A DNA stretch of 64,000 nucleotides from an uncultured Ponticaulis sp. (GCA_963678615.1 OY782947.1:2118688-2182687); one strand, 5' to 3'; counted from the first letter of the stretch, positions 14,864-32,381 are shown. The notes: generated by a model not told the origin, from the sequence alone. Translations and numbers: made by a program.

Positions 14864-15664
14864 TTACTGACCTTTAAAGTCCGGTGCGCGTTTTTCCAGA
14901 AGCGCAGTCACACCTTCAACATGGTCATCTGTATGATGAAGGATTGCCTGTTGCGCCGCAGACATTTCCATAATGGTTTCATAGTCAGCGTTCTGCGCTT
15001 TGCGGAGCAACATTTTTGCGGCGCGAAGCGCCAATGGTGGTTGCGCAGCTGTTTTCTCAGCGAGTTCCATGGCGGCATCCATCAGCTCACCGTCTGGCAC
15101 TTTGCGAGACGCCCAGCCCCACTCAATCGCCGTATCCGCATCATACATTGTGCCGGTGAAGATCATTTCTGAGGCACGCGACAGACCAACAATGCGCGGC
15201 ATGAGCCAGGAGCCGCCATCACCTGGAATCAGACCGATGCGCAGGAAGGACATACCGAACCGTGCGCTCTCACCAATGACGCGCATATCCGCCATACAGG
15301 CCACATCGCAACCAAGACCAACCGCTGGGCCGTTCACCGCTGCGACCAGTGGCAGTTCAAAATTCCAGAGTGAATTGACGATTTTGTGGATGTTCTTCGT
15401 GTAGCCGTTCTTGACCTCAAAAGGACTGCCGCCAAACGCGCCAGAGCGATCTTTCATCGCTTTCAGATCACCACCTGCAGAGAAGGCACGTCCCGCACCC
15501 GTCAGAATGCAGCACCGCAGTTCCTTGTCAGCGGCCAGTTCTTTCGTCACCTCAACAAACGCATCGCCATCGCCAGCCTTCCCCAGCGGGTTCAGCTGGT
15601 CAGGACGGTTGATGGTCATGATGGCAATCTTGCCGCGCTTTTCGACTTTCAGAAGGTCCTGCAT
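14864..15664 (-). CDS. Enoyl-CoA hydratase/isomerase (crotonase) family protein
   Basis: TINRPDQLN, AFSAGGDL, AAVNGPAVGLG, GLIPGDGG, KRAPDFKG. Confidence 0.93.
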   Translation of the reverse strand: MQDLLKVEKRGKIAIMTINRPDQLNPLGKAGDGDAFVEVTKELAADKELRCCILTGAGRAFSAGGDLKAMKDRSGAFGGSPFEVKNGYTKNIHKIVNSLWNFELPLVAAVNGPAVGLGCDVACMADMRVIGESARFGMSFLRIGLIPGDGGSWLMPRIVGLSRASEMIFTGTMYDADTAIEWGWASRKVPDGELMDAAMELAEKTAAQPPLALRAAKMLLRKAQNADYETIMEMSAAQQAILHHTDDHVEGVTALLEKRAPDFKGQ

Positions 15665-15702: not shown

Positions 15703-15718
15703 CTGACGAAAACGTCAG
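15703..15718. promoter_or_regulatory. Palindromic operator CTGACG-AAAA-CGTCAG (LiuR-like)
   Basis: Perfect 6-4-6 inverted repeat between divergent crotonase and thiolase; related sites at 24421 and 29852. Confidence 0.6.
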
Positions 15719-15824
15719 GAATTGCAATGCCAACTGCATAAACTTCCTGCTTGATTACCCTAAGGGCAGTTGTTGGAGATACTCTCCCAACACCAAGTTT
15801 ATAGTTCTCAGGGAGATTATTTAT

Positions 15825-17003
15825 ATGGCTGACGCTTATATCGTATCCGCAAAACGGACCGCAGGCGGTCGTAAGAATGGCGCGCTGGCAGGTTGGCACC
15901 CGGCAAACCTCGGCGCACAGGTTCTGAACGCTGTTATCAAAGACACAGGCATTGATCCTGCTGTTGTTGAAGACGTGATCATGGGCTGCGTCACTCAAGC
16001 CGGTGAGCAAGCTGGCCAGGTTGGCCGCACATGCGTCATGGCATCTGATCTCCCAGACAGCGTTCCTGCGGTTACAATCGACCGTCAGTGTGGTTCGTCT
16101 CAGCAATCTATCCAGTTCGCAGCGCAGGCCGTTATGTCTGGCACGCAGGACGTTGTGATCGCGGCTGGTATTGAGAGCATGTCTCACTGCCCGATGGGGC
16201 TGAACTTCCAGGCTGGTAAAGTCATGGACATCCCAACTGATCCAACGCCGAAAAACCTCAAAGAGAAGTATGGCATTCGCGGTTTCAGCCAGTTTGCTGG
16301 TGCGGAAATGATCGCGAAAAAGCACGGCCACACAAAAGAAATGCTCGATGCATTCTCTGTTGAGAGCCACAAGCGTGCGGCGGCAGCAACAGCGGCTGGC
16401 GCATTCAAAGACGAGCTGGTCGTGATTGAAGGCCGTGACGGCGAAGGCAACGCAGTCATGCACGACAAGGATGAAGGCATTCGTTACGACGCCTCTATGG
16501 AAGGCATGGCGAAGCTGAAAATCCTCATGGAAGACGGCGTTATGACTGCGGCAAACGCGAGCCAGATCTGTGACGGTTCTTCTGCGGTTATGGTTGTGTC
16601 TGAGCGCGCTCTGAAAGAGCACGGCCTCACCCCATTGGCGCGTATTGCGAACCTCACCGTCACCGCTGGCGACCCGGTCATCATGCTCGAAGAGCCACTC
16701 TTCGCAACTGACCGCGCTCTGCAACGCTCTGGCATCAACATCAACGATATCGACCTTTACGAAGTGAACGAAGCCTTCGCGCCAGTTCCACTTGCCTGGC
16801 TCAAGCATGTCGGTGCTGACCCAGCGAAGTTGAACGTCAATGGCGGCGCGATCGCTCTGGGTCACCCACTCGGTGCATCAGGCGCAAAGCTGATGGCAAC
16901 TCTGGTTCACGCTCTGAAAGCACGTGGCGGCAAATACGGCCTGCAAACCATGTGTGAAGGCGGCGGCGTTGCAAACGTCACAATCATCGAGAACCTCGCT
17001 TAA
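15825..17003 (+). CDS. Acetyl-CoA C-acyltransferase (thiolase)
   Basis: DRQCGSSQ catalytic Cys, NEAFA, GGAIALGHPLGASG, TMCEGGG. Real start is ATG 15825 after gggag; the 138-aa extension in the ORF track is spurious. Confidence 0.96.
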   Translation: MADAYIVSAKRTAGGRKNGALAGWHPANLGAQVLNAVIKDTGIDPAVVEDVIMGCVTQAGEQAGQVGRTCVMASDLPDSVPAVTIDRQCGSSQQSIQFAAQAVMSGTQDVVIAAGIESMSHCPMGLNFQAGKVMDIPTDPTPKNLKEKYGIRGFSQFAGAEMIAKKHGHTKEMLDAFSVESHKRAAAATAAGAFKDELVVIEGRDGEGNAVMHDKDEGIRYDASMEGMAKLKILMEDGVMTAANASQICDGSSAVMVVSERALKEHGLTPLARIANLTVTAGDPVIMLEEPLFATDRALQRSGININDIDLYEVNEAFAPVPLAWLKHVGADPAKLNVNGGAIALGHPLGASGAKLMATLVHALKARGGKYGLQTMCEGGGVANVTIIENLA

Positions 17004-17031
17004 GCGATTTCGACAGACATTGGTTCTGGAA

Positions 17032-17061
17032 AGGCGGGCCTTCGGGCTCGCCTTTTTTATT
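17032..17061 (+). terminator. Intrinsic terminator, copy 1 of a 30-nt direct repeat
   Basis: aggcgggcc-ttcg-ggctcgcc-ttttttatt. Confidence 0.88.
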
Positions 17062-17140
17062 GCGCCAACTAATCGTTGAACCTACGCTTCCCGGTAATCG
17101 ACCGCAAAGACGCCGGTCAAATGGAGGGAGTGAAAACCAC

Positions 17141-17878
17141 ATGTCCAAATCCGCACGCCTCTGGCTTTCGGCCGGCGCATTTGCGCTAACGGCTCTGACT
17201 TCTGCGGCATCAGCGCAAGAATACAGAATGGAATCCGTCAAAGTTACATCGAGCAAGATGTCTGAAGATCTCCCAGGTGTTGTTTTGAAACATCAGGGCG
17301 ACTTCCTATTGATGGATATAGCCATCGAAAGCGATTCTCGTGAACTTTCTGTTCGGAAAAAAGAAATTCAGGAAACCGTCGATAAGCTCCTGAAGTCGGC
17401 AAAACAAAAAGAAGACATCACCGTCAGCATTGATACCAATGGAATGGTCTTTCCTCTTTTGACATCCGCAAATCTCCCAATGACCTCAGGGGCACGTCCT
17501 GATACTTCGCTCGTCAATCTCGTTTTGCGAACCCCCATTCCAAAGGAAGTGAAGGATGTGCAGGATCTCTCCTCACGTCTGAGTGTATTTGCGAATTCCA
17601 TCAACGGCGTCGGTCGGGCGACAGTCGGCGCGTATGCCGATACGACTGTCAGCGTTGTGAACCCTCAGCAATATCGCATGGACGTTATCTTTGCGGTTCT
17701 CGATGAAGTGAAAGCTGTCACTGAGCGACTGGGCCCCGACTATCGCGTTGTCCTGACCGGCATCGACAACCAAATGGAGTGGCGCGGCGTCGACAATACC
17801 AATGTGCTTTTCTACATCCCCTATAGCTACGATGTCATTCCAACGAGTCTGAACGCAAGACTGGACAGCGACTATTAA
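17141..17878 (+). CDS. Exported hypothetical protein, possibly SIMPL-like
   Basis: SD ggagggag, signal peptide MSKSARLWLSAGAFALTALTSAASA|QE; no catalytic motif recognised. Confidence 0.7.
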   Translation: MSKSARLWLSAGAFALTALTSAASAQEYRMESVKVTSSKMSEDLPGVVLKHQGDFLLMDIAIESDSRELSVRKKEIQETVDKLLKSAKQKEDITVSIDTNGMVFPLLTSANLPMTSGARPDTSLVNLVLRTPIPKEVKDVQDLSSRLSVFANSINGVGRATVGAYADTTVSVVNPQQYRMDVIFAVLDEVKAVTERLGPDYRVVLTGIDNQMEWRGVDNTNVLFYIPYSYDVIPTSLNARLDSDY

Positions 17879-17890
17879 TTCCTTCGGCAC

Positions 17891-17920
17891 AGGCGGGCCT
17901 TCAGGCTCGCCTTTTTTATT
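17891..17920 (+). terminator. Intrinsic terminator, copy 2 (29/30 identical to copy 1)
   Basis: aggcgggcc-ttca-ggctcgcc-ttttttatt. Confidence 0.88.
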
Positions 17921-17964
17921 TAGGAGGCGCGCTTAAAAGGGCCAATTGACCCAGTCACACATTT

Positions 17965-19008
17965 TTATTTCAGAACATCTTCGGCGTCTGCGATTTCTAC
18001 ATCCCGCATCATGGCTAGGTATGCGTCCAGATAGCCTTTATGAGACGCGCCGACGATGACCAGCATACGGCTGCCTGGATGCGCACCAAAAGCCTCGCGA
18101 ATATTAGCCGCCATACGAAGGTTCCGTGTTTCCCAATAGGTCACATACTGACGTCCATATTGTCTTTCTGAAGGATCCGCCAAGGCTGCTCCGAAGTCAC
18201 GAGCATAGACTTGTTTCGGATATGCCGGATCATTGTACAGCCGATAGGCGTCCAAAACGCCTTCCGGCGAATACAATCCCGGTCCCCGGGCGTCAGCCTC
18301 CCTCTTCGAAGGTTCAGATGCCGCCGTATTCCAGGCCGCAGAAATCGCTTTACCGTAAGCGTCATCATCGTCAATTGGGATGGAAACGGCCTGATCATCA
18401 TATTGTACCACACGCTGCAGACCGAGCTGCACGGCCAACGGTGCGGCAATCCAATAATTCTCATTTCGTCGTCCGATCCGCGAGTTGAGATAGTCAACCA
18501 ATTCGGGCGTGAGCCGGTCACTTTCGATACGGTCTGCTTCCGCCAGATAGAGCCATTGTATCGTTGCAGAGACCGGATCACCGGCTGCCAGCATAACTGC
18601 CGCAAGGTTGCGGCGCATAGCTGGAGCAGGATCGGACGGCCAATCCGACAAAAGCCTTTCACGTTCTGCAATCGCAGCAGCCACATCCAGACCCGTGGCA
18701 ATACGGGCAGCTTTCGTATCCGGGCAGTACGTTTCTGCTTCATCAATGAATTCTTTCTGCCGGCGCATCAGATCGCATTCATCACCGGGTATTGACTCAA
18801 TGCCGATGATTTGCGGCCGCCAAGTTTCGAGGCGATCTATCAGCGGATCAAGATTTTCAATTTCAACATCTTCTGGCCAATAGGCGATATGCGGTGTGCC
18901 AAGCACCAACACTTCATTTGGCATGCGCGCACCTACCGCGTCTTGTGCATACACAACGCCAAGGGAATTGACCGCTGCCAGACTCCACAAAAAAAGTGCT
19001 CGTATCAT
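17965..19008 (-). CDS. Secreted DUF5694-like protein
   Basis: Signal peptide, VLVLGTPH, W..RNLRMAANI, LVIVGASHK. Confidence 0.75.
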   Translation of the reverse strand: MIRALFLWSLAAVNSLGVVYAQDAVGARMPNEVLVLGTPHIAYWPEDVEIENLDPLIDRLETWRPQIIGIESIPGDECDLMRRQKEFIDEAETYCPDTKAARIATGLDVAAAIAERERLLSDWPSDPAPAMRRNLAAVMLAAGDPVSATIQWLYLAEADRIESDRLTPELVDYLNSRIGRRNENYWIAAPLAVQLGLQRVVQYDDQAVSIPIDDDDAYGKAISAAWNTAASEPSKREADARGPGLYSPEGVLDAYRLYNDPAYPKQVYARDFGAALADPSERQYGRQYVTYWETRNLRMAANIREAFGAHPGSRMLVIVGASHKGYLDAYLAMMRDVEIADAEDVLK

Positions 19009-19099
19009 GAAAATTCCCTCATCTCCGCCATTAGGATAGACCAGATGACAAGCGGGACAAGATCAATATTCGTCGTATGCAGACCGACCGATCTGCTGA

Positions 19100-19390
19100 T
19101 TAAAATGCCTCGGCATCCGCCTCATACAGCCGGAGCTGACGGTCTGAAATGCCAATCATCGGCCAGGCTTCCCGCCACGCCCGAATATGATCGGTCTGCA
19201 GATGCGCCGCGAGATGCGCGCGACTTTCCCAGCGTTCAATCACCCGAAACAGACCCGGCTCGAGCAGATCCTGCGCATAAGCATAGTCAATGCAGCCGTG
19301 TTCAGCGCGGCTTGCGGCGATCATCGCCGCCATGTGAGGCCTTGCCGCTTCCGGATTGGCAACGCGAATGGTTCCCTCAACAATGATCAT
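19100..19390 (-). CDS. Putative quinol monooxygenase (ABM domain)
   Basis: SRAEHGCIDY, F.VIERWES..HL..H...H. Confidence 0.88.
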   Translation of the reverse strand: MIIVEGTIRVANPEAARPHMAAMIAASRAEHGCIDYAYAQDLLEPGLFRVIERWESRAHLAAHLQTDHIRAWREAWPMIGISDRQLRLYEADAEAF

Positions 19391-20133
19391 ATCAGTAGCT
19401 TCAACGCTTCATTCAGCGTCACGCCAATTTCAGCATTGATGACGAGGTCTGCAATCGGGTCCTGATCCGTTGGTTCACGGTTGAGGATGACATATTTTGC
19501 ACCGGTCTGTTTGGCGATGATCGGGATGTTCGCCGCCGGATACACCACCAGCGATGATCCGATAGCAATACAAAGATCGCACGCATGAGCGGCGGCTTCC
19601 GCCAGCATGACCTCATCTTCCGGCATGGCCTGACCAAAGGAAATCGTCGCCGATTTCAGCAAGCCCTCACAGACGTCACAGGTCAGATCTTCGCCCGCTT
19701 CATAGCGCGGCTTCAATCCGTCAAAACTATAGGTCTGCCCGCAGTCCAGACATTTGGCGTAAGAGGCATTGCCGTGGATTTCGACCACCATTTCGTCACG
19801 TACGCCGGAATCCTGATGCAGATTGTCGACATTCTGGGTGACGATCATTTTCACCTTGCCCATATCGACCAGGGTTTTCAGCGCCAAATGCCCTGAATTC
19901 GGAGCAGCGCCTGTCCAGCCCGCCGTTTTGTTGTAAACGCGGTCCCACGCCTCTTTGCGCTTTTCACGAGAGGCGACAAAGTCCTGAAAGTAAATCGGTT
20001 GCATCTTGGTCCAGACACCACCCGGACTGCGAAAATCAGGAATGCCGCTTTCGGTGGAGATACCCGCGCCGGTGAACACCATGATATTGCGCGCTTCACT
20101 GATCAGATTTGCCAAAGCCTGAGCGTCAGACAT
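19387..20133 (-). CDS. cobB: NAD-dependent protein deacylase (Sir2/CobB family)
   Basis: TGAGISTESGIPDFRSPGG, TQNVDNLH, EIHG, CxxC...CxxC, GSSLVVYPAA. Confidence 0.93.
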   Translation of the reverse strand: MSDAQALANLISEARNIMVFTGAGISTESGIPDFRSPGGVWTKMQPIYFQDFVASREKRKEAWDRVYNKTAGWTGAAPNSGHLALKTLVDMGKVKMIVTQNVDNLHQDSGVRDEMVVEIHGNASYAKCLDCGQTYSFDGLKPRYEAGEDLTCDVCEGLLKSATISFGQAMPEDEVMLAEAAAHACDLCIAIGSSLVVYPAANIPIIAKQTGAKYVILNREPTDQDPIADLVINAEIGVTLNEALKLLI

Positions 20134-20191
20134 GTCGTATCCCTCCCTGACTGTTGTTCGGGATCAGATTAGCTGCGCTTACCGGAACGGT

Positions 20192-20332
20192 CTATCCAAA
20201 CCGACCAGGCTTGTGATCTTCCGGCTTGGGCGGAAAAGCGCCTTGCTTGGCTTTCCAGTCTTTTCCCTTGTGAAGCCACATCACGCCAATGATTGCGACA
20301 ATCGCAATCGGTAAAACCACTATTGCAAGCAT
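20192..20332 (-). CDS. Small single-pass membrane protein, 46 aa, not in the ORF track
   Basis: MLAIVVLPIAIVAIIGVMWLHKGKDWKAKQGAFPPKPEDHKPGRFG*; starts 3 nt after the upstream stop and fills the gap before cobB. Confidence 0.6.
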   Translation of the reverse strand: MLAIVVLPIAIVAIIGVMWLHKGKDWKAKQGAFPPKPEDHKPGRFG

Positions 20333-20335
20333 TGC

Positions 20336-20623
20336 TTAAAACGCACCGCCATCACTGCCGCCAACATCATGGAACCCACTCGTTTCCGAGGGTTCCGAGG
20401 TGTCACCCCTGCCACCAAAAAGGACCGCGATCAACGCGACAATTCCGGAAAACACGATGGCGGTGATATGAAAGAGCGGCGCCATCATAAAGGCTTTGAA
20501 AACAGAGAGCCCGCCCTGCGCCGGGTCGGTCAACTGAATCAGAATGCCAAGCCCGATCGGGATAACCATCAGCATCAGATATGTCTGAAACAGTTTAATG
20601 ATGAATCGTTTCAGCATCCTCAC
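20336..20623 (-). CDS. Small hypothetical membrane protein (2 TM)
   Basis: Two hydrophobic helices and a G/D/S-rich tail; co-oriented in the operon. Confidence 0.65.
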   Translation of the reverse strand: MRMLKRFIIKLFQTYLMLMVIPIGLGILIQLTDPAQGGLSVFKAFMMAPLFHITAIVFSGIVALIAVLFGGRGDTSEPSETSGFHDVGGSDGGAF

Positions 20624-20674
20624 CCCACTCTCAACGTAACCGGGAAGATAATCTGAATCCGGACTAACCGCAAA

Positions 20675-21151
20675 TCACACTATCAGCAGCTCATTACAAA
20701 TCGCTTCGAGCCATTCCTGATCGACAGTATCGAAGGCGTTATAGTCGGTTGAATCGACATCGAGAACCGCAACGAGGTTTCCGTCTTTGTCGCGAACCGG
20801 AACCACAATTTCCGAGTTCGACCGGCTATCGCATGCAATATGGCCCGGAAAGGCGTGGACGTCCGGAACCAGCTGTGTTTCGCCGCTTTGCGCGCACGCT
20901 CCGCATACACCTTTGCCAAACGGAATGCGCAAACAGCCCAGCGTGCCGTTATACGGACCGACCACGAGTTCCTCTGGTTTGAGCGGGTCCACCACGTAAA
21001 ATCCGGTCCAGAAAAATCGCGGACGAAACGCTTCAGACAACAGGCAGGCTGTCGTTGCCAGACGAGCGGGCAGATAGGTTTCCCCGGCAACCACCGAAAG
21101 AATTTCATCCTTAAGGTCTGCGTATTTTTCGGCGCGATTATCAACAGTCAT
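20675..21151 (-). CDS. msrC: GAF domain protein, free methionine-(R)-sulfoxide reductase-like (MsrC/YebR)
   Basis: FWTGFY, LVVGPYNGTLGCLRIPFGKGVCG, DVHAFPGHIACD..SNSEIVVP, VLDVDS. Confidence 0.85.
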   Translation of the reverse strand: MTVDNRAEKYADLKDEILSVVAGETYLPARLATTACLLSEAFRPRFFWTGFYVVDPLKPEELVVGPYNGTLGCLRIPFGKGVCGACAQSGETQLVPDVHAFPGHIACDSRSNSEIVVPVRDKDGNLVAVLDVDSTDYNAFDTVDQEWLEAICNELLIV

Positions 21152-21221
21152 GAGACGGGCTTTCTGTAACAGGAGCCCGTCATGTGATCATGAAGTTTCA
21201 AAGGTCAAGACCGGGGCGCCG

Positions 21222-24200
21222 TTATAACGGACAACTGAGCGGGCTGTTCTCCCCGCCTGTGTTCTCATAGACCGTGAGCAAGTCGACAGCAGCAGCCGCC
21301 AATCGCCCAACACCCGCAAAGCAAGCAAGCCCAATCGCTTTGGCAATTTCACAAGCCATGCCCGCAATCACTTTCTGGACAGCAGGGGCAATGCCGCTCG
21401 CATCCATGAGGACCAGCGTGACGCTGACCGCTGCATACAATCGGGCAAGCCGCTGACCATAAGCGGCAACAATGCCAAGCGATGCACCCGCGATGCCGCC
21501 AATGGCACCGGTCCAGCCAACCACCATGATCAACAGGTTCAGGGCCGAGATAATCTCATCAATTTCTTTCAGCTGGCGCATAATGCGTTCTTCTTCGGCG
21601 CCGCCGCCGCTGCCATCGGAAAGCAGGCCATAAACTTCACCGGTTTCCCGGTCGACCGACCAGCTTGCCAGTGTCTGATAGTCCGACGCGGTGACATGAA
21701 TGGCCCCCTTGGGGAAGCGGGATTTGGCTTCTTTCTGGAAGCGGTGCCAGGCCGGTTCCATCTCCTCCGGGCCGGTCTCTCTTGCCGCCTTCAGGTCAAA
21801 GGCTGTCAGCTGTTTGCCTTGCAACAGACTGCGCGTGCTCTTTGAGAACAAAGCCGTTTCGCCATTGGCAAGTCGCAGGCTGGACAACATAGCCATTTCA
21901 ATCGCCGTGTTCTGATCTTTCGCCAGCGTGTAGGTTTTGCTGAACGGCATAATGTCGAGCTTGCGCACGAATTTGTCCGTTCCGATGACGGGATGCTCAG
22001 AATAATAGACCGTGCGAAGCCCCTGCTCAGAGAAGCAATAGCCCTCCCCCGCCCCTGGCATGGTGCGCGCCATAAAGGTAGCGAGCTCGCCCGGCAGATA
22101 GTCCACGCCCTCTTCCAGAACGGACATCATCTCATCGGCTGAATCGGCGTGGTCCTGTGAGGCCTGATACAAGTTCTCGACGCTGAGCTTTGCCTTCAAC
22201 ACATCATCCATCAGTGTCGAAATAGATGGTGCGGCCCCTTCAAACGCTATCAGATGTGAGCCGAACATTGCGCCATGGATCGCGCCGTAATCCTCTTCGG
22301 TCGGGGCATCGCCATTTCCGTCAAAACCCGCAATCAGGCGGGTGATGCTGTTACCCGACATGCGAACCGTGAGATAAATGCCCGCGATTTTCTTACCGAA
22401 GCGCTGAACGTCTGGCCGGGTGTAGTCGGCCTGAGCCGAGGCCGCACCGATCTTTGCTGTCACGATATGCTTACCGGCTGACTGATCCGGCGCACGATAA
22501 GATACCAGATATGGCAAGTCTGCCTCGCCAACTTCCAGATAGCGCGTCATCAGCGCTTCGATCTCGGACTGGTCTTCCTCGCTGACATTTACCGCTTCGC
22601 CGCCGGTTGCCCGCGCCATGGCGTCCATCACACTGTCAGCATTGCTTTCGCGACGCTTTTCCAGTTTGGACTTCACATCCATCATAATGGTCTTCGGACC
22701 ATTCGCGAGGCGTTCCAAAATGTCTTTTGACGGCCCGCCATTCACATCACCATCCGTGGCATAGACAATCAGGCTGTACTCACCTTGAGCGTATCTGGCG
22801 AGATTATGCCAAAGCGACGAATTCGTGCCCGTCACTGTGACTTTCGCGTCCGGGTGAATGGTTTTAGCAATTGCCTCAACGCGCTCGGACAAGGCTTTCA
22901 TCTGAGGGGCTTTACCGCCCCGAAAGGCCGTCGGCATGGAAAGCGACTCATCTGCCAGAAACAGAATATGGGGTGCGACTGAGGTATTATACAGACGAAC
23001 GGCAGCGGCTTGTTCCTGATCCGTGATGAGGAAGTCGCCAGCGCTCAGCCCATCGACCAGCTTTCCATTCTCATCGCGCGGCATGACCTTCAAACGTATA
23101 TCCGGAAAGTCCGTAGCTACCGTTTCAACGGTGACAGATCTGACGCGCCCGGCAAGGCCGCTCGGCTCCGGCGATGGCAGTTTCTCACCATTCTTGAGGA
23201 TCTCACCGGATTCTGTAACGGTGATGCGGTCCCCTTCCAGGGTGAAGGCATCCCCCATCCGGAACTTCTGATCCGGCTCGATAACTTCCCCGTCCAGCGC
23301 CTGCAAAGCCAGAACCGGAGAGAAGGTCCGCACATCTCCGATACGCGCACCGAGCATGGCAACGCTGTCCATTGCGGACTTAAAGCCGATACGAACTTGT
23401 CGCCCGGCAAGATCGTGACTGGTCCAGCGACCCTTCACCAGATCAATATGCTTATCGAGATCGTCATTCATTACCGCCGACAGTGTGATACTGACACCGG
23501 AACCGCCTGACAGTTTGCGGAAAGTCGTAGACGAATGACCGTCCGGCCAGGGTTTGAACTCACCATTCGGGCGAATCGGATCGGCGTAATAGCGCGTTCC
23601 GTCTTCTTCAGTGATTTCGACGACCGGCAGACCGCCCGTCCCTTTATAGCTGAGAACAGCATTTCCGATACGCGCCCTGGTATCGTCATCCAGCAACCCC
23701 ATGAGCTCCGGCGCGAGGGAGTCGATATCCCCTGCCTGTTCTTCAATGGTCGGCGGCGGCGGGTCCGTGTCAGGCTGGCCTAGGCGGCGCTTCCAGTCCT
23801 TTAGTTTGTCTCTGGAAAAATCAGGCTCGAAGGGTTGCTCATAGCTGCGAAAAAAAATGCCCTTTGTTTCGCCCTCATCAGGATTGTCGGCGTTAACGAC
23901 CCGCGCTTTGCGACCTGTCTTGCGGACAAGCTCAGCAAAGATTTCCGCCTTTTCCCGTGCGGTTCCTGCCCCGGCTCGTAAGGCTGCGCGTGTGCCTGTA
24001 TAGGCTTCATATCCATAGCGAAAACTGTTTTTCCGATTGGAGATCAGCCGGATCTCATCACGCACGAACCGGTGCAAGGCCTGTAGATCGCCTGCGGCAA
24101 CCAACCGGGCTGCGCGGCCCACTGTATGGTCGGGGCTGACGCGCAAAGCCGCCTGCACTTCGCGCCAGACAGAGAACGGCCCCGGCTCCGCCGCCGGTAA

Positions 24201-24323
24201 CGGCTCTTGCTTCTGACAGGCAGACAACGCTCCCGGCAGACCACCAATGACCACGCCTGTAACGCCGAGTTTCCATCCGCTGCCAAGTAAGGCACGCCTC
24301 GAAATACCGTTCAGTTCTGCCAT
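21222..24323 (-). CDS. Large Tat-exported lipoprotein (1033 aa): degenerate transglutaminase-like region, vWA domain, hydrophobic C-terminus
   Basis: SD gaggagga; SRRALL Tat motif, LSAC lipobox; ALRAGAGTAREKA...LVRKTGRKARVV; LFLADESLS MIDAS plus YATDG and ATGG; Gly-rich hydrophobic tail. Confidence 0.7.
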   Translation of the reverse strand: MAELNGISRRALLGSGWKLGVTGVVIGGLPGALSACQKQEPLPAAEPGPFSVWREVQAALRVSPDHTVGRAARLVAAGDLQALHRFVRDEIRLISNRKNSFRYGYEAYTGTRAALRAGAGTAREKAEIFAELVRKTGRKARVVNADNPDEGETKGIFFRSYEQPFEPDFSRDKLKDWKRRLGQPDTDPPPPTIEEQAGDIDSLAPELMGLLDDDTRARIGNAVLSYKGTGGLPVVEITEEDGTRYYADPIRPNGEFKPWPDGHSSTTFRKLSGGSGVSITLSAVMNDDLDKHIDLVKGRWTSHDLAGRQVRIGFKSAMDSVAMLGARIGDVRTFSPVLALQALDGEVIEPDQKFRMGDAFTLEGDRITVTESGEILKNGEKLPSPEPSGLAGRVRSVTVETVATDFPDIRLKVMPRDENGKLVDGLSAGDFLITDQEQAAAVRLYNTSVAPHILFLADESLSMPTAFRGGKAPQMKALSERVEAIAKTIHPDAKVTVTGTNSSLWHNLARYAQGEYSLIVYATDGDVNGGPSKDILERLANGPKTIMMDVKSKLEKRRESNADSVMDAMARATGGEAVNVSEEDQSEIEALMTRYLEVGEADLPYLVSYRAPDQSAGKHIVTAKIGAASAQADYTRPDVQRFGKKIAGIYLTVRMSGNSITRLIAGFDGNGDAPTEEDYGAIHGAMFGSHLIAFEGAAPSISTLMDDVLKAKLSVENLYQASQDHADSADEMMSVLEEGVDYLPGELATFMARTMPGAGEGYCFSEQGLRTVYYSEHPVIGTDKFVRKLDIMPFSKTYTLAKDQNTAIEMAMLSSLRLANGETALFSKSTRSLLQGKQLTAFDLKAARETGPEEMEPAWHRFQKEAKSRFPKGAIHVTASDYQTLASWSVDRETGEVYGLLSDGSGGGAEEERIMRQLKEIDEIISALNLLIMVVGWTGAIGGIAGASLGIVAAYGQRLARLYAAVSVTLVLMDASGIAPAVQKVIAGMACEIAKAIGLACFAGVGRLAAAAVDLLTVYENTGGENSPLSCPL

Positions 24324-24420
24324 GGTGGTCTCCTCCTCTTCCCCTGTTTTCACGTCAGAAACTTACAAAGCCGGACATTTTTTCTAAGCCCACCGAAGAC
24401 CTTTTACTTTCGATAGATCG

Positions 24421-24436
24421 TTGACGCGGACGTCAA
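24421..24436. promoter_or_regulatory. Palindromic operator TTGACG-CGGA-CGTCAA (LiuR-like)
   Basis: Perfect 6-4-6 inverted repeat between the two divergent Tat-lipoprotein genes. Confidence 0.62.
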
Positions 24437-24498
24437 TTTTGACTTGCGTCCGGACGGCGAAAGCGAAACACTCCACTCAAAAATACCGGGAGGAAAAA

Positions 24499-25989
24499 AT
24501 GACTCATATTACACGGCGTCAGGCGCTGGTTTCTGGTGGCGCGCTCGGCGCGTTTCTGCCTATGGCTGCGGCTTGCGCCCCCGCAAAGACGGCAAATGCC
24601 TCTCCGGACGAGAGCAAATTCACCGATGGTGTGCGCCTGGCTGAATTGATTGCCAAAGGCGAGTTGACGGCACTGGAAGCCGTTAACGCTGCGATTGATC
24701 GCGCAGAATCAGTCGAGCCAAAGATCAACGCGATTGCCAGCAAAATGTATGACAGTGCGCGCGACATGGCCGCCTCCACCCCACAAGGTCGACTGGGCGG
24801 TGTGCCGAGCTTCATCAAAGACCTGAATGACTGGAAAGGCGCGCCAACCTTTTATGGCAGTCAGGCGTTTAAAGGCTATATCGCCCAGTCCGACCATGAA
24901 ATTTCAATGGCCTGGCGCAAGGCTGGCATTATTCCAATCGGCAAATCGACCTCACCTGAGCTCGGTTTGACGGCGACCACTGAAACGCTGGTGACGGGCG
25001 CGTCTCGCAATCCGTGGAACACCGATCATTCAACCGGCGGATCATCTGGCGGTGCAGGCGCACTTGTCGCCGCACGTGTTGTACCTTTCGCGCATGCCAC
25101 CGATGGCGGCGGCTCTATCCGCATTCCAGCCAGCTGTAATGGTGTGTTCGGCCTGAAACCATCGCGCGGACGCACTTACCTTCGGGCCAGTGAGCCGCCT
25201 GTGCCAATTTCAGTCTCGCTGGCAGAGACCCTCACCGTTCGTGACAGTGTGGCGGTGTTCCGCGTCAATCAGACCGGCAATTATGATGACATTGGTGCAA
25301 TTTCCGGACCGTCAGAAAAGCGACTGAAGATCGGTCTTCTGACAATGCCGCCTTCCGGCAAGCCTGCTGATGCTGAAGTCGTTGCAGCAACCGAAAAAGC
25401 CGCCGCACTTTGTAACTCGCTTGGCCATGAGGTCGTGCCGTTTGCCTTCCCGGCTTCTTTCAGCACCGCGGAATTTGTCGAAAACTTTGTCCTCTACTGG
25501 TCCGCAGGCGCGGCAGAATTCGTCCAGCAGGCCAGCAAGTTTACCGGCAAACCGCCGGGACCAGATATTGTCGAGCCTCTGACGCTTCATCTGGCAGGTC
25601 ACTTCCAGAAAAACGCCGCAGCCTTTGGCGACGCAGTTGCTTATCTGAAGGGCTTTGAAGCCGTCTATGACAGCTGGTTTTCGAATATGGACATTCTTCT
25701 GACGCCAACCCTGCCGCATCTGCCGTTCAAGATTGGTGAGATCGGCCCGACCGTTGATCCAGAAGTGCATTTCTCAAAAGTGATCGACTATGCAACGTTC
25801 ACCCCGCTGATGAACGTATCCGGCGCAGCGAGCATGTCTGTGCCGCTCGGCTGGAGCACATCGGGTCTGCCAATCGGAATTATGTTCTCTGGCAAGCGCG
25901 GTGATGACGGCAAGCTTTACGGACTTGCTTACGAACTGGAACAGGCCGCTCCGTGGATCGACAACATCCCGCCGGTACATGCCAGCTGA
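24499..25989 (+). CDS. Amidase signature family enzyme with Tat lipoprotein signal
   Basis: TRRQAL...AAAC; IKDL (Lys), [20 protein letters not shown]. Start at ATG 24499 after ggagga. Confidence 0.92.
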
Positions 25990-26049
25990 TCAACATTTGA
26001 GTGATTGACGGTAATCGGTTAGAAGCGGCGCTTTGTTACGATAAAGCGC

Positions 26050-27066
26050 ATGAAAAAAATCGATTACCGTTTCTCTGTAGCTCCCATGATGGACTGGACC
26101 GACCGGCATTGCCGGGCGTTTCATCGTGAGCTGTCGGACCATGCGCTGTTATACACCGAAATGGTGACAGCGGACGCGGTGATCCATGGCGACCGCGAGC
26201 GCCTGATCGGCTATTCCGATGCAGAACACCCTGTCGCGTTGCAATTGGGCGGAAACGAACCGGACAAGCTGGCCGAAGCCGCCCGTATCGTTGAAGATTT
26301 CGGCTATGACGAGGTCAATCTGAATTGCGGCTGCCCATCGGATCGGGTGCAGTCAGGCGCGTTTGGGGCGTGTCTGATGCGCGAGCCTGATCTGGTCGCT
26401 GACTGCCTGTCTACCATGCAAAAAGCCGTTTCCATCCCTGTCACGGTGAAGCACCGGATTGGCGTCGACGAAGATGACGAGCGCGACTGCGTGTATCGTT
26501 TTGTCGAAACGGTGACGGACAAATCAGACTGCACAGTCTTTATTGCCCATGCGCGCAAAGCCTGGCTGAAAGGACTAAGCCCGAAAGAAAACCGGGATAT
26601 TCCACCGCTCAATTATCCGCTGATTCATGAGCTGAAGTCAGACTTTCCCGATCTCACCATTGTTTTGAATGGCGGTCTGGCGACTGTCGATGACAGCCTG
26701 CCTCACCTTGCAAAACTGGACGGCGTCATGCTGGGGCGTGCGCCTTATCAGAACCCCTCGCTTATGCTTGAGGTCGATTCAAAAGTTTTTGGCGCACCGC
26801 AGAAACATGAGGACATGATTTCCGCCCTGCTTGCCTACCGGGAATATATCGTCCGTGCACTGGAAGCCGAAACCCCGCTGCACGGCATTACGCGGCATTT
26901 GCTGGGCTCTTTCAATGGCTTGCCCGGCGCGCGCCTTTGGCGTCGTCACCTGTCTGAAAACGCGCCACGAGCAGGCGCAGACATTACCGTTTTTGATACA
27001 GCGCTTGAATTTGTTCAGCGCTATCAGGACGAAGCCGAACCGATCACGAATGCGCAACCGGCGTAA
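26050..27066 (+). CDS. dusA: tRNA dihydrouridine(20/20a) synthase
   Basis: FSVAPMMDWTDRHCR, NLNCGCPSDRVQSGAFGACLM, HARKAWLKGLSPKENRDIPPL. Confidence 0.96.
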   Translation: MKKIDYRFSVAPMMDWTDRHCRAFHRELSDHALLYTEMVTADAVIHGDRERLIGYSDAEHPVALQLGGNEPDKLAEAARIVEDFGYDEVNLNCGCPSDRVQSGAFGACLMREPDLVADCLSTMQKAVSIPVTVKHRIGVDEDDERDCVYRFVETVTDKSDCTVFIAHARKAWLKGLSPKENRDIPPLNYPLIHELKSDFPDLTIVLNGGLATVDDSLPHLAKLDGVMLGRAPYQNPSLMLEVDSKVFGAPQKHEDMISALLAYREYIVRALEAETPLHGITRHLLGSFNGLPGARLWRRHLSENAPRAGADITVFDTALEFVQRYQDEAEPITNAQPA

Positions 27067-27109
27067 AACATCGCTTGCTCTGATCGATTTCGCCTGCGAC
27101 TAAGCGAAC

Positions 27110-27934
27110 ATGATCGAAACGCTTATCCCTTATCTTCCGCTGCTCGGAGCGCTCATCGTTGCGGGCCTGTTTGCAGGTCTCGTCGCCGGATTGTTCGGCA
27201 TTGGCGGCGGCGTCGTCATCGTGCCAACGCTGGCTTTTGTCTTCACACAGCTCGGCTATCCGGATGTCGCGATGCACTCTGCGGTCGGCTGTTCGCTGGC
27301 AACCATTGTGGCAACGTCACTTCGGTCGGCGAGCGCCCACCATAAACGCGGCGCGGTAGATATGGACGTGGTGAAAGGCTGGGTGCCGTTCATCATGATC
27401 GGTTCAATTCTTGGCGCACTGATTGCCGGTATGCTGCCTGCGGCAGGCATGCGCGGCGTTTTTGGCGGCGTCCTGTTCGTCATTGCTCTGCAGTTCATTT
27501 TCGGACGCCCGACCTGGAAGCTGGCAGATCAACTGCCGTCCGGCCTGCCGCGCATTGGCATTGCCTCGTCGCTCGGGGCGTTGTCAGGCATTATGGGCAT
27601 TGGCGGCGGCGTGTTCGGCGTGACGCTGATGACGCTGTGTGGCCACCCGGTTCACCGGGCGGTTGGCACAGCTGCTGCTTTTGGGGCCGCGATCGGTTTT
27701 CCGGCCGCAATAGGCTTTGCCTATACCGGCTGGGGCGTTGAAAATCGCCTGCCGCTGTCGATTGGTTATCTGAATGTGCCAGCCATTGTGATCATTGCTC
27801 TCCTGACGACCAGCATTGCCCCGCTTGGCGCGGCACTTGCCCATCGTCTGGATGCAACAACCCTTCGCCGCGTGTTTGGCGTCGTGACTGTAATTTTGTC
27901 AGCAAATATGTTGCGGGTGGCGTTCGGCTTTTAA
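27110..27934 (+). CDS. Sulfite exporter TauE/SafE family protein
   Basis: GLFGIGGGVVIVP, GIMGIGGG; about 8 TMs. Confidence 0.9.
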   Translation: MIETLIPYLPLLGALIVAGLFAGLVAGLFGIGGGVVIVPTLAFVFTQLGYPDVAMHSAVGCSLATIVATSLRSASAHHKRGAVDMDVVKGWVPFIMIGSILGALIAGMLPAAGMRGVFGGVLFVIALQFIFGRPTWKLADQLPSGLPRIGIASSLGALSGIMGIGGGVFGVTLMTLCGHPVHRAVGTAAAFGAAIGFPAAIGFAYTGWGVENRLPLSIGYLNVPAIVIIALLTTSIAPLGAALAHRLDATTLRRVFGVVTVILSANMLRVAFGF

Positions 27935-27942
27935 AGCGTGTC

Positions 27943-28467
27943 TCATTGACCGCGAATAATCATGGTCGAACCTCGAACTTCGTAAGACTTCAGCTCACTC
28001 ATAAAGCTCATTCCGAGCAATGATTGCTTGAGGTGTGCGTTTTCCAGAACCAGCGCGCCGACATTTTTCACAACGACATCGCCAATTTGCACTTCGTCCA
28101 GCATAACGACAGCGCCGCGTGTTTCCCCGCCAGCCGTGAAGACTTTGATATTATACTCAAGGTCGTCATCTTTGACGCCGAGGCGTTTCGCATCGGTCCG
28201 GGTCAGCGCAACGCTTTTGGCCCCTGTGTCGACCATGAATTTCACATGGACATTGTCGACCTTGGCATCCGCCCAGAAATGGCCGTCCTCTTTGCGCTTC
28301 AAAACAGCCGCGCGCGGACCGGGTGCTTCAGGGCGAAACGTATTGACGGCAACCTCTTCAACGACCTTCGTTTCTTTCTCGGAGCTGAAAAACGAATCGT
28401 TCATTTTCAGCGCTACCCAAAAGGCCGCGCACATGACCAGAAACAACGGAAAGAAAAAACGGGACAT
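27943..28467 (-). CDS. Clan AA aspartic protease (TIGR02281-like)
   Basis: DGHF, FMVDTGA, SLLGMSF; N-terminal TM. Confidence 0.92.
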   Translation of the reverse strand: MSRFFFPLFLVMCAAFWVALKMNDSFFSSEKETKVVEEVAVNTFRPEAPGPRAAVLKRKEDGHFWADAKVDNVHVKFMVDTGAKSVALTRTDAKRLGVKDDDLEYNIKVFTAGGETRGAVVMLDEVQIGDVVVKNVGALVLENAHLKQSLLGMSFMSELKSYEVRGSTMIIRGQ

Positions 28468-28478
28468 TCAGGTTACTT

Positions 28479-28676
28479 TCAGCCGAGTTTGCCGTCCGCA
28501 CGCAGTTCATCCAAACGCACGGGCAATGACTTCATAACGTCATCTCGTTGCTGTTCGGTATACCGCGACCATTGACTTATCTCTTTTAGTGTCCGCCCAC
28601 AGCCCAGACACCAGCCACTTGGTCCATCTATTGCACAAACCCGGATACAGGGTGTTTTCACAGCGATTGGTTTCAT
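28479..28676 (-). CDS. DUF1289 domain protein
   Basis: TPCIRVC...GWCLGCGRTLKEISQW. Confidence 0.92.
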   Translation of the reverse strand: MKPIAVKTPCIRVCAIDGPSGWCLGCGRTLKEISQWSRYTEQQRDDVMKSLPVRLDELRADGKLG

Positions 28677-28830
28677 GTGACTAATATGCAGGCAAAACAG
28701 TCTGTGTCACCTTCATGTTTGCCGACTATAATGGAAATGTCATATTTCCTATGTACGACGACCACTAATCACAGCTTTCTTTTTGCAGACAGACGCAATA
28801 GGAACTCTTTTTTCAAACCGGATTGTTAGA

Positions 28831-29811
28831 ATGACGGACACACCATTTAATGATGTGAGGGATTTGATTGCGCGAATGCCCGACCTGAATTTGCCGAGCG
28901 AGTACAATGCCGATGGCAGCGTACCGCACAACAAATTTGGCCGGCTCACGCGAATCGGAGACTGGCTCAGCGCAAGCCAGCGACGCGAAATCCCTGAAGT
29001 CGAGAAAACGACGCTGGCCCTGTTCGCCGGATCGCATGGCCTTGCCAAATATCAGGTCTCCGTGTCTGACCCGGATGCCACCCGTCATCGCATTGAGAAG
29101 CTGCAAAAAGGCACGCTGCCAACAAACGGTATCGCTGCAGATGCCCGCGCGACCGTGAAAGTCTTTGAACTGGCACTGGAACAGCCAACAGGTGACATTT
29201 CTGTCGAACCGGCCATGTCTGAAAAAGACTGCGCTGCGACAATCGCCTATGGCATGGAAGCCGTAGCGGACACGCCTGACTGTCTGGCGCTCGGCGTTCT
29301 TGGTGTTGGCGGCGGTACAGCCGCAGCCGCCGTTGCCGCCAGCCTTTATGGTGGAGATGCACGCTATTGGGTGCGCGCAGGTGTCGGCCCGACCAGCGAA
29401 GTCAATCTGGCCCGTGAAGCCATCGTCAACAAAGCTGGTGAATTCCACCGCGGGCACCTTCAGGATCCGTTGGAAATTCTGCGCCGTCTGGGCGGCCGCG
29501 AACTGGCAGCCTGTGTCGGTGCAATCATCGCTGCACGCCATCAGGGCGTTCCGGTTCTGCTCGATGGATTTGCGACCTGTGTGGCCGCTGGCATTGTCCA
29601 CAGCCTCAATCCGCGTGGCATTGAACATGTCATGGCAGGTCAGATCACTGATCGGCCATCGCACACAGCGATTCTCGATCGGATTAAGCTCGATCCGGTC
29701 TATGATTTGCGTCTTCAACTCGGCGAAGGCTTTGGTTCAACACTCGCAATTCACGTTTTGCGGGCTGCTGCAATTACACGACGCCTCCAGTCTGAGGCCT
29801 CAAACGGCTAA
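28831..29811 (+). CDS. cobT: Nicotinate-nucleotide:dimethylbenzimidazole phosphoribosyltransferase-like protein, divergent
   Basis: FGRL, VFELAL..PT.DI..EPAM, LGGRELAA, LLDGF, LRLQLGEG.G; several active-site motifs altered. Start set at ATG 28831. Confidence 0.8.
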   Translation: MTDTPFNDVRDLIARMPDLNLPSEYNADGSVPHNKFGRLTRIGDWLSASQRREIPEVEKTTLALFAGSHGLAKYQVSVSDPDATRHRIEKLQKGTLPTNGIAADARATVKVFELALEQPTGDISVEPAMSEKDCAATIAYGMEAVADTPDCLALGVLGVGGGTAAAAVAASLYGGDARYWVRAGVGPTSEVNLAREAIVNKAGEFHRGHLQDPLEILRRLGGRELAACVGAIIAARHQGVPVLLDGFATCVAAGIVHSLNPRGIEHVMAGQITDRPSHTAILDRIKLDPVYDLRLQLGEGFGSTLAIHVLRAAAITRRLQSEASNG

Positions 29812-29851
29812 ATCGACAATTAGACGCAGATAAAATGCGAGATTCTTCACG

Positions 29852-29867
29852 TTTACGTTCGCGTCAT
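29852..29867. promoter_or_regulatory. Degenerate LiuR-like operator TTTACG-TTCG-CGTCAT
   Basis: Matches the 15703/24421 palindrome with mismatches; about 60 nt upstream of the acyl-CoA dehydrogenase pair. Confidence 0.45.
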
Positions 29868-29925
29868 AGGTTGAAGCTAGCAAACTATATTCTATTATCG
29901 CCCCAAACCGTCATGGGAGCATAAT

Positions 29926-31122
29926 ATGAATTTGGAATTCTCGCCGGAGGAAATCGCGTTTCGAGACGAAGTGCGAACATTTATCGAAGAAAACTACCCA
30001 GCTGAGCTGAAAGGCAAAGGTCACCGTGAAGACCTGACACCTGACGAGTTCACTGCCTGGCACAAAATTCTCGGCAAAAAAGGATGGTCTGTACCGTCCT
30101 GGCCGGTTGAGTATGGCGGCACAGGCTGGACCCCAACTCAGAAATATATCTGGTCAGAAGAGAATGCGCGCGCTGACACAATCATGCCGCTTCCATTCGC
30201 TGTCTCAATGGTTGGCCCGGTTATCTACACATTCGGTAGCCAGGAGCACAAAGACCGCTTCCTGCCAGGTATCGTCGACGGCACAACATGGTGGTGTCAG
30301 GGCTTCTCAGAGCCGGGCGCTGGATCTGACCTTGCTGGTCTGAAAACAACAGCTGTTCGCGATGGCGATGAGTGGGTCATTAACGGCCAGAAGACTTGGA
30401 CGACCCTCGGCCATTATGCTGAATGGGGCTTCTTCCTCTGCCGCACAAACCCGGATGCTGCGAAAAAGCAGGAAGGTATTTCCTTCATCCTCGTAAAAAT
30501 GGACACTCCAGGCGTTGAAGTACGTCCAATCATCATGGCCGATGGTGGCCACGAAGTGAACGAAGTCTGGCTGACAGACGTTCGCGTTCCAGTGGACAAT
30601 CTGGTTGGTGAAGAAAACAAAGGCTGGACTTACGCAAAATTCCTTCTCGCTCACGAGCGGACTGGTATTGCAGGCGTTGCACGCTCTAAGCGTGGCATTG
30701 AGCGTCTCCGCGAGATCGCTTCAACTGAAGTCAGCAATGGCAAGCCACTTCTGGAAGATGCAGACTTTGCAGAAAAAATCTGCAAGCTGGAAATCGACCT
30801 GACTGCGCTTGAGTTCACTGAGCTGCGCACCCTGTCTGCAATGCAGGCTGGCAAAGGCCCGGGCCCTGAAAGCTCCCTGCTGAAAATCAAAGGTACTGAG
30901 ATTCAGCAGCGCCTGACAGAGCTCACCATGGAAGCGGTTGGCAATTACGCTCTCCCATATTTCCGCGGGTTCCCGGAAGACGGCGACAACCGTTTCCCAA
31001 TCGGTCCGGATTACGCACACCATTCTGCACCGAACTATTTCAACATGCGTAAAACATCGATCTATGGTGGATCGAATGAGATTCAGCGCAACATCATCGC
31101 CAAAGCCGTACTCGGCCTCTAA
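29926..31122 (+). CDS. Acyl-CoA dehydrogenase, PimC-like large subunit
   Basis: WCQGFSEPGAGSDLAGLKT, NGQKTWTT, SIYGGSNEIQRNIIAK. Confidence 0.93.
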   Translation: MNLEFSPEEIAFRDEVRTFIEENYPAELKGKGHREDLTPDEFTAWHKILGKKGWSVPSWPVEYGGTGWTPTQKYIWSEENARADTIMPLPFAVSMVGPVIYTFGSQEHKDRFLPGIVDGTTWWCQGFSEPGAGSDLAGLKTTAVRDGDEWVINGQKTWTTLGHYAEWGFFLCRTNPDAAKKQEGISFILVKMDTPGVEVRPIIMADGGHEVNEVWLTDVRVPVDNLVGEENKGWTYAKFLLAHERTGIAGVARSKRGIERLREIASTEVSNGKPLLEDADFAEKICKLEIDLTALEFTELRTLSAMQAGKGPGPESSLLKIKGTEIQQRLTELTMEAVGNYALPYFRGFPEDGDNRFPIGPDYAHHSAPNYFNMRKTSIYGGSNEIQRNIIAKAVLGL

Positions 31123-31223: not shown

Positions 31224-32381
31224 GTGGATTTTAATTTCACCGAAGAACAAGGCATGATCCGGGACTCACTGTCTCGTCTGATCCGTGAACAATACGACTT
31301 CGAAACTCGCCGTAATGTTGTGAACTCTGAGTCTGGCTGGCGTCCGGAAATGTGGGCTCAGTTCGCTGAACTCGGTCTTCTGGCAGCTCCATTCTCAGAA
31401 GAAGATGGCGGTCTTGGCGGCAATGCAGTTGACTCCATGGTTGTCATGGAAGAGTTCGGCAAAGGCCTGGTTATCGAACCATTCGTACCATCCGTTGTTG
31501 GCGGTGGTGGCTTCCTGAAGCATGGCGGCAACGCAGCTCAGAAAGAAGAATACCTGGCAGGCATTATTGGCGGCGAAATGATTTTCGCGGTTGCTGCATC
31601 TGAACCACAAAGCCGGTTCAGCATGTCTGATGTCACAACAACAGCGCGCGCAAACGGTTCATCTTACGTGCTCAATGGCCACAAGGCAGTTGTCATGGGT
31701 GCGCCATGGGCCACTCACCTCGTTGTGACAGCTCGCACATCTGGCGGTCAGTATGATGCAGACGGCATTTCTGTCTTCATCGTTCCTAAGTCTGCAAACG
31801 GCGTCGTCACACGTGACTACCCGACTGTTGACGGCTTCCGCGCGTCTGAAGTTTACCTTGAGAACGTGGAAGTTTCTGGCGACGCAATGATCGGCGAAGA
31901 AGGCAAAGGCCTGCCTCTGATCGAGCGCGTTCGTGACGATTCTATCGCTGCGACATGTGCGGAAGCTTGCGGCGCAATGCAGGTGCTTCACGCGCAGACT
32001 CTGGAATATGCAAAGAGCCGTAAGCAGTTCGGCGTTCCGATTTCAACATTCCAGGTTCTGCAACACCGTATGGTCGACATGTTCGTTGAGCATCAGCAGT
32101 CTGTTTCCATGACATATCAGGTCACTCTGCGTCTGGAAGAAGATGCAACAGCCCGCATGAAAGCGGCATCTGCTGCAAAAGTTCAGATCGGCAATTCTGC
32201 TCGTTTCGTTGGTCAGAGTGCAGTTCAGATCCATGGCGGCATGGGCGTAACAGACGAGCTGGCAGCCAGCCACTACTTCAAGCGTCTCACCATGATCGAC
32301 ACTCAGTTCGGCAATGTAGACTACCATCTGCGTCGCTACACTGATCTGTCTGGTGCAGAGATCGCGGCTGCGGCTGAATAA
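31224..32381 (+). CDS. Acyl-CoA dehydrogenase, PimD-like small subunit
   Basis: MDFNFTEEQ, RKQFGVPISTFQVLQHRMVDM, QIHGGMGVTDE; GTG start after gggag. Confidence 0.92.
   Translation: MDFNFTEEQGMIRDSLSRLIREQYDFETRRNVVNSESGWRPEMWAQFAELGLLAAPFSEEDGGLGGNAVDSMVVMEEFGKGLVIEPFVPSVVGGGGFLKHGGNAAQKEEYLAGIIGGEMIFAVAASEPQSRFSMSDVTTTARANGSSYVLNGHKAVVMGAPWATHLVVTARTSGGQYDADGISVFIVPKSANGVVTRDYPTVDGFRASEVYLENVEVSGDAMIGEEGKGLPLIERVRDDSIAATCAEACGAMQVLHAQTLEYAKSRKQFGVPISTFQVLQHRMVDMFVEHQQSVSMTYQVTLRLEEDATARMKAASAAKVQIGNSARFVGQSAVQIHGGMGVTDELAASHYFKRLTMIDTQFGNVDYHLRRYTDLSGAEIAAAAE

Follow-up and report, generated by a model that had tools for sequence, protein, structure and literature searches.

A conserved inverted repeat suggests a LiuR-like regulon joining acyl-CoA catabolism and a predicted exported amidase in an uncultured Ponticaulis

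Introduction

Regulators of the LiuR family govern fatty-acid and branched-chain acyl-CoA catabolism in Alphaproteobacteria. Kazakov et al. reportedly described LiuR in 2009 as a MerR-family regulator of branched-chain amino-acid degradation and, in Alphaproteobacteria, of fatty-acid degradation. Here we analyse a 16-bp dyad built on TGACG-N4-CGTCA that occurs between genes in a 64,000-nucleotide stretch of DNA, referred to below as the window, from an uncultured Ponticaulis sp. (GCA_963678615.1 OY782947.1:2118688-2182687), and compare it with the sites that accompany LiuR-like genes.

LiuR has been described as a MerR-family repressor (PMC3223726), and a RegPrecise compendium of 196 genomes lists LiuR regulons in 104 of them, alphaproteobacterial groups included (PMC5343134). 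The targets recorded there include acyl-CoA dehydrogenase (ACAD), enoyl-CoA hydratase (ECH) and thiolase genes, with acdH, acdB and acdA among those listed; amidases are absent from the LiuR targets of the compendium (PMC5343134 supplement). Two further systems invite comparison. The pim operons of Alphaproteobacteria carry thiolase, FadB and CoA ligase genes together and adjoin IclR regulators, and NylA, the 6-aminohexanoate-cyclic-dimer hydrolase (PDB 3A2P), belongs to the amidase-signature family.

The window resembles each of these systems in part. Its dyads, with the consensus TGACGY-N2-RCGTCA, lie upstream of a pair of acyl-CoA dehydrogenase genes (ACAD1 and ACAD2), an amidase gene and an ECH gene. 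We propose, as a reading somewhat likelier to be right than wrong, that the dyad is the operator of a dimeric, acyl-CoA-responsive factor encoded outside the window, most likely a MerR-type member of the LiuR family.

Results

Three intergenic dyads, one of them conserved in five genus-level genomes

A pattern search of the window found two exact occurrences of TGACG-N4-CGTCA (15704-15717 and 24422-24435), and the relaxed form TKACG-N4-CGTMA adds a third exact site, TTACGTTCGCGTCA (29853-29866). Extended by one base on each side, copies 1 and 2 are perfect 6-N4-6 palindromes. All three copies are intergenic (Table 1): the start codon of ECH (15664, minus strand) is 39 nt from copy 1 and that of the thiolase gene (15825) 108 nt; copy 2 has the amidase ATG (24499) at 64 nt and the ATG of a giant protein (24323, minus strand) at 99 nt; and copy 3 has the ACAD1 ATG (29926) at 60 nt. 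A first-pass annotation of the sequence had placed the dyads at these three positions and the two exact copies between genes, as we find them, and Pfam and NCBIfam annotation bears out its gene calls.

Homologues of the giant protein put the window in a Ponticaulis-like lineage of the Hyphomonadaceae. The comparison drew on a 97% relative (L025), a locus whose giant protein is 80% identical to that of the window (L024), a TARA scaffold whose ECH is 89% identical (L030), Ponticaulis profundi (L010; neighbouring proteins 58-94% identical), two loci whose amidases are 74% and 68% identical (L052 and L054, respectively), and two whose ECH is 73% and 67% identical (L032, from TMED5, and L035, respectively). 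Upstream of ACAD1 the dyad is kept in all five genus-level genomes (window, TTTACGttcgCGTCA; L025, TTGACGttcgCGTCA; L024, TTGACGcccgCGTCA; L030, TTGACGcgccCGTCA; P. profundi, GTGACActggCGTCA). The half-sites are fixed and the 4-nt spacer is free, and in this alignment the right half-site is the more strongly conserved half. The dyad is absent upstream of ACAD1 in L032 and L035. In the window, 4 nt separate the end of copy 3 from the predicted -35 box downstream of it, and the copy is centred near -46.

The two dehydrogenase genes follow cobT in the window; their pairing is kept in all relatives examined, and they are probably co-transcribed. ACAD1 scores best with TIGR03204 (510 bits, under the 624-bit equivalog cut-off) and ACAD2 with TIGR03203 (430 bits, under the 653-bit equivalog cut-off); because both scores sit below the cut-off, we call the pair only pimCD-like. 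Likeness to the pim operons extends to 54-59% identity with plasmid-borne pimC-like genes. Unlike those operons, with their fuller gene content and adjoining IclR regulators, the window has the ACAD pair alone behind cobT and preceded by a LiuR-like dyad. The plasmid-borne pimC-like loci themselves are IclR-linked operons without the dyad and are uninformative on this point. Judged from its conservation, the ACAD pair would be the conserved core target of the dyad-binding regulator.

The dyad beside the amidase gene

Copy 2 lies between the divergent genes for the amidase and for a giant Tat-lipoprotein. When the window, L025, the second amidase of L024 and P. profundi are aligned (alignment A3), the longest stretch of the amidase spacer without any change is TGACGC-G-CGTCA, the rest having diverged, and a dyad precedes the Tat-lipoprotein amidase in three of the five lineages. 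L024 breaks this synteny: an inserted amidase paralogue, which lacks a signal, stands next to the giant gene and separates it from the true amidase orthologue. The orthologue, 77% identical and with its Tat-lipobox present, has the dyad 69 nt upstream; the giant gene's own spacer has none, though it keeps a TGTCCGG element. We regard the amidase as a probable clade-level, lineage-variable member of the regulon. It is predicted to be exported because it carries a Tat signal and a lipobox, and in this it differs from NylA, the closest solved structure (E = 1e-58 over residues 42-491, by sequence comparison only).

The giant gene has a conserved upstream element of its own. At 8 of the 17 homologue loci, which range from Ponticaulis-like bacteria to Maricaulis, the sequence (A/G)TGTCCGG(C/T)TT stands 50-100 nt upstream of it, and the loci with TGTCCGG include the window, L025, L024, L001 and L005-L008. 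Copy 2 is about 45 nt upstream of this element in the window. Among the giant-protein homologue loci L001-L016 for which the upstream region was present, the dyad was found only in the syntenic P. profundi spacer.

Three further observations concern this region. An imperfect inverted repeat, CGGACGTCAA..TTGACTTGCGTCCG (24436-24456), overlaps the right half of copy 2 and is partly altered in the 97% relative. The giant proteins of the window and P. profundi (L010 10001-13126) share only 46% identity, against 58-94% for the flanking proteins, and the gene may be either unusually fast-evolving or replaced. In the TARA relative, EgtB/EgtD-like genes (FGE-sulfatase/DinB and methyltransferase) occupy the place of the giant protein and amidase (L030 4235-6450).

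A lineage-restricted dyad beside the hydratase gene

The dyad between the ECH and thiolase genes occurs only in this species and in L025, where it is identical. On sequence, copy 1 fits a putative CTGACG-17-TGAGAA promoter with a 20-nt leader toward ECH, and it probably acts on the ECH side. Control of the thiolase gene by copy 1 is doubtful, because the invariant block GCTTGATTACCC, the putative promoter block of the thiolase gene, is some 35 nt further on than the dyad. The relocated thiolase orthologue of P. profundi has no dyad. The first-pass annotation's case for the crotonase/thiolase site is thus weakened, the site being confined to one species and its 97% relative and sitting on the ECH side.

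Gene order in the relatives places ECH within the ACAD1-ACAD2 cluster, directly after the pair in L035 (7455-10801) and after three hypothetical genes in L032 (5235-10801). This arrangement suggests an ancestral ECH-ACAD operon that was split in the lineage of the window, so that the proposed regulon would reunite genes of one former operon. The ECH site may be a recent gain in this species, arising after the hydratase gene separated from the dehydrogenase operon.

Sites of the same class upstream of LiuR-like genes

A MerR probe searched against plasmid and chromid records matched 43 of them at 57-79% identity. LiuR-like genes head MerR-thiolase-FadB-ACAD operons at four of the loci (L036, L038, L041 and L043, from Alloyangia, two Azospirillum species and Martelella), a MerR-ACAD-GST-thiolase-FadB cluster in Paracoccus (L037) and a liuR-ivd-mccB operon in Marinobacter. 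In 9 of 16 such plasmid or chromid loci an exact TKACG-N4-CGTMA site precedes the MerR gene, at 36-67 nt from the annotated start in five and, in four unannotated records, 107-151 nt ahead of the point where the protein match begins; TTTACGTTTACGTAAA, TTGACGTTCACGTAAA and CTTACGCGCACGTCAA are examples. A metagenome scan with a four-sequence alignment of LiuR-like proteins returned 80 loci, 74 of which had sufficient upstream DNA. Of these 74, 19 have an exact site no more than 250 nt upstream, where about 0.07 would be expected by chance, and a further 13 exact sites occur elsewhere in the metagenome loci (1.7 expected). The dyads of the window agree with this pattern at 10 of 10 specified positions.

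In Paracoccus ferrooxidans (L037 4450-5372) two LiuR-like MerR genes stand side by side in front of the ACAD-GST-thiolase-FadB cluster, and the exact dyad is found upstream of the second only.

Occurrence in the window and weaker variants

Dinucleotide shuffles of the window yield an expectation of 0.18 copies of TGACG-N4-CGTCA, against the two seen; the earlier estimate of 0.06 was naive. Three exact matches to TKACG-N4-CGTMA were reached in none of 100 shuffles. Intergenic DNA makes up 10.5% of the window and holds all three exact matches, as against 10 coding matches among the 11 that carry one mismatch, and across 120 kb from four lineages seven of eight exact matches are intergenic, where intergenic DNA makes up 12%.

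Two weaker variants had also been proposed, at 3728 and 35594. The former corresponds to a one-mismatch intergenic site at 3729, TTACAAAAACGTCA, 139 nt upstream of the probable ATG (3868) of a TonB-dependent receptor gene. The latter, TGACG-cag-CGACA, was rejected as an operator for its wrong spacing (N3) and its mismatch, and looks like a product of chance. Upstream of the same receptor gene the sequence ACAAAAACG(A/T)CA occurs twice, 42 nt apart (3687-3700 and 3729-3742), and the second copy is the one-mismatch match to the operator pattern.

Elsewhere in the relatives, L024 carries a histidine kinase/GerE response-regulator pair inserted between tauE and dus; together, this pair and the extra amidase paralogue are placed at L024 2999-5507 and 8412-9860.

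Table 1. Dyads, genes and control elements discussed in the text, in window coordinates
Feature	Position	Strand	Sequence, basis or remark
Operator copy 1	15703-15718	.	CTGACGaaaaCGTCAG; divergent ECH/thiolase spacer
Operator copy 2	24421-24436	.	TTGACGcggaCGTCAA; amidase/giant-protein spacer
Operator copy 3	29852-29867	.	TTTACGttcgCGTCAT; upstream of ACAD1-ACAD2
Predicted promoter for ACAD1-ACAD2, TTGAAG-16-TATTAT	29871-29898	+	Consensus scan; block conserved in five genomes
ACAD1, pimeloyl-CoA dehydrogenase large-subunit-like (pimC-like)	29926-31122	+	Pfam ACAD domains
ACAD2, small-subunit-like (pimD-like)	31224-32381	+	Pfam ACAD domains, NCBIfam
Amidase-signature enzyme	24499-25989	+	PF01425; NF005899 440 bits, above cut-off; Tat signal TRRQAL, lipobox MAAAC
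Giant Tat-lipoprotein, 1033 residues, VWA-like regions	21222-24323	-	Shares amidase spacer
ATGTCCGGCTTT element upstream of giant gene	24367-24378	-	Conserved; putative separate control element
Crotonase-type enoyl-CoA hydratase (ECH)	14864-15664	-	PF00378, NF006699; probable target of copy 1
Thiolase	15825-17003	+	Pfam thiolase domains; control by copy 1 doubtful

Discussion

Our comparative analysis revealed a dyad that is fixed in its half-sites upstream of ACAD1 in five genus-level genomes, follows the amidase gene through a rearrangement and appears beside ECH in one species and its 97% relative, and that belongs to the same class as the sites found upstream of LiuR-like genes. That these dyads are functional has a high probability, and the earlier proposal of a shared operator is borne out by the conserved half-sites with their free spacers and by the class match to LiuR-like loci. 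Besides the 16-bp TKACG...CGTMA architecture, the window shares with LiuR its kinds of target, namely acyl-CoA dehydrogenase, enoyl-CoA hydratase and possibly thiolase genes, and a regulon whose content differs between lineages. From these likenesses we infer the following model. A dimeric regulator encoded elsewhere would bind the dyads at the ACAD pair, the amidase and ECH, binding on or beside the -35 region would repress transcription, and an acyl-CoA intermediate would release the regulator and lift the repression. The balance tips modestly toward a LiuR-like regulator; this reading is supported as a resemblance of class and is unproven as membership of the family.

Several observations weigh against this model and keep our confidence in check. 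In canonical LiuR-like sites the innermost base of the half-site is T in 38 of 42 cases, giving an ACGT core, whereas the 16 half-sites of the Ponticaulis clade have C in 10, T in four, and A and G in one each. The clade has thus retained a pyrimidine at this position and lost the ACGT core, and a C-inner site of the clade type was found upstream of none of the LiuR-like genes examined. The resemblance to the LiuR operator claimed by the first-pass annotation accordingly stands for the TKACG-N4-CGTMA pattern and fails for the inner ACGT bases. Neither the 64-kb window nor the approximately 100 kb of syntenic loci of relatives yielded a regulator gene, liuR included; the MerR probe had no match in the window or the relatives' loci, annotation with Pfam and NCBIfam found no transcription-factor gene in the window except rpoD, and there are no liu or ivd genes near the window's targets. 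Many LiuR-like sites are found between the -35 and -10 boxes; copy 3 is not, and the ACAD1 and amidase sites are both just upstream of a predicted -35 box; several LiuR-like promoters, for their part, use the left half-site itself as the -35 box. An exported amidase is a further departure from the LiuR targets of the compendium (PMC5343134). The amidase dyad is gone in L052 and L054, where rearrangements have left 44-54 bp upstream, and at the orthologous ECH position L030 and L054 retain only the left part, GGTTCTGAC, with the dyad absent. A search for RNA runs returned none, the sequencing runs of the isolate being of DNA only. Finally, the statistics of the single window are weak, the motif having been picked after inspection. 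When the window's intergenic 6.6 kb was Markov-shuffled as a post-hoc test, 45% of the shuffled sets contained two or more copies of some 5-Nk-5 palindrome (k=0-10); restricted to k=4 the figure is 6%, and the window holds another recurring intergenic palindrome, AAGCA-N1. Because of the post-hoc choice and this recurrence, the window statistics are not decisive, and the significance of the dyads rests on the cross-species footprint and not on counts in the window.

Which other explanations could account for the footprint? The dyads may be real operators read, as TGACGC-N2-GCGTCA, by a regulator from a different family (TetR, GntR, IclR or similar), with the likeness to LiuR sites a convergence. 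The mostly C inner base would fit such a factor, as would the IclR regulators that adjoin pimCD-like operons elsewhere, the lack of a MerR gene in the window and the relatives' loci examined, and the loss of the dyad upstream of ACAD1 in TMED5 (L032) and L035, which could reflect regulator turnover. We consider this reading tenable but doubtful, given that all 10 specified positions coincide with the pattern upstream of LiuR-like genes, that alphaproteobacterial LiuR regulons cover the same target functions, and that the targets adjoin no candidate regulator of any family. It is very improbable, on the other hand, that the dyads have no regulatory role and are chance palindromes arising from -35-like TTGACG hexamers, or small RNA hairpins or terminators. 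The recurrence of palindromes in shuffled DNA, the resemblance of TTGACG to a -35 box, the terminator-like score of copy 2 and the poor conservation of the ECH site would all agree with that reading; it is difficult to reconcile with half-sites that are both kept, the right one most strongly, around variable spacers in four lineages, with a dyad that accompanies the amidase through rearrangement, and with the strong tie between the pattern and LiuR-like genes. No gene ends at copy 2, and no T-run follows copy 3. A terminator at copy 2 was rejected since both flanking genes diverge from it, and a mere -35 box since the right half-site is the better conserved.

Two alternatives concern the reach of the regulon and not the identity of its regulator. 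The first-pass annotation had placed both the amidase and the giant lipoprotein in an acyl-catabolic regulon, with copy 2 controlling the two divergent Tat-lipoprotein genes. The amidase retains its place by virtue of its conserved dyad copy. Control of both genes would be consistent with the spacer they share in the window, L025 and P. profundi, all three with the dyad kept, and with the TTGACG that, read from the sequence toward the giant gene, is followed after 15 nt by TATCGA. We nevertheless think it unlikely. In L024, which separates the two genes, the dyad stays with the amidase orthologue and is missing at the giant gene despite the kept TGTCCGG; the other giant-protein homologues examined are without a dyad, and copy 2 stands about 45 nt upstream of the giant gene's own conserved element. 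Because of the L024 arrangement and the dyad-free homologues, the giant gene is likely no target; it probably merely shares the amidase spacer. More speculatively, since the amidase is NylA-like and the dehydrogenases are pimCD-like, the whole could constitute a dedicated regulon for an extracellular amide (a lactam, an oligoamide or an N-acyl amide) under a single regulator derived from LiuR, its specificity having shifted from ACGT to a GACGC core. The exported lipoprotein amidase would then act at the cell surface to free a medium-chain or dicarboxylic acid, which the pimCD-like dehydrogenase, the hydratase and a thiolase would degrade. We rate this scheme as quite improbable.

What would a LiuR-like regulon of this kind mean for the organism? 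Taken for itself, our inference is of an ordinary regulon; its lineage-specific amidase member is modestly interesting, and its half-site is a variant one. It nonetheless proposes a concrete regulon for a marine Hyphomonadaceae bacterium, from which the giant Tat-lipoprotein, with a conserved upstream element of its own, is probably to be removed. The three sites would illustrate regulon turnover at close range, one being conserved, one moving with its gene through rearrangement and one newly gained. If the exported NylA-like amidase is indeed tied to acyl-CoA catabolism, this connection may offer a hint at the class of substrate on which the enzyme acts.

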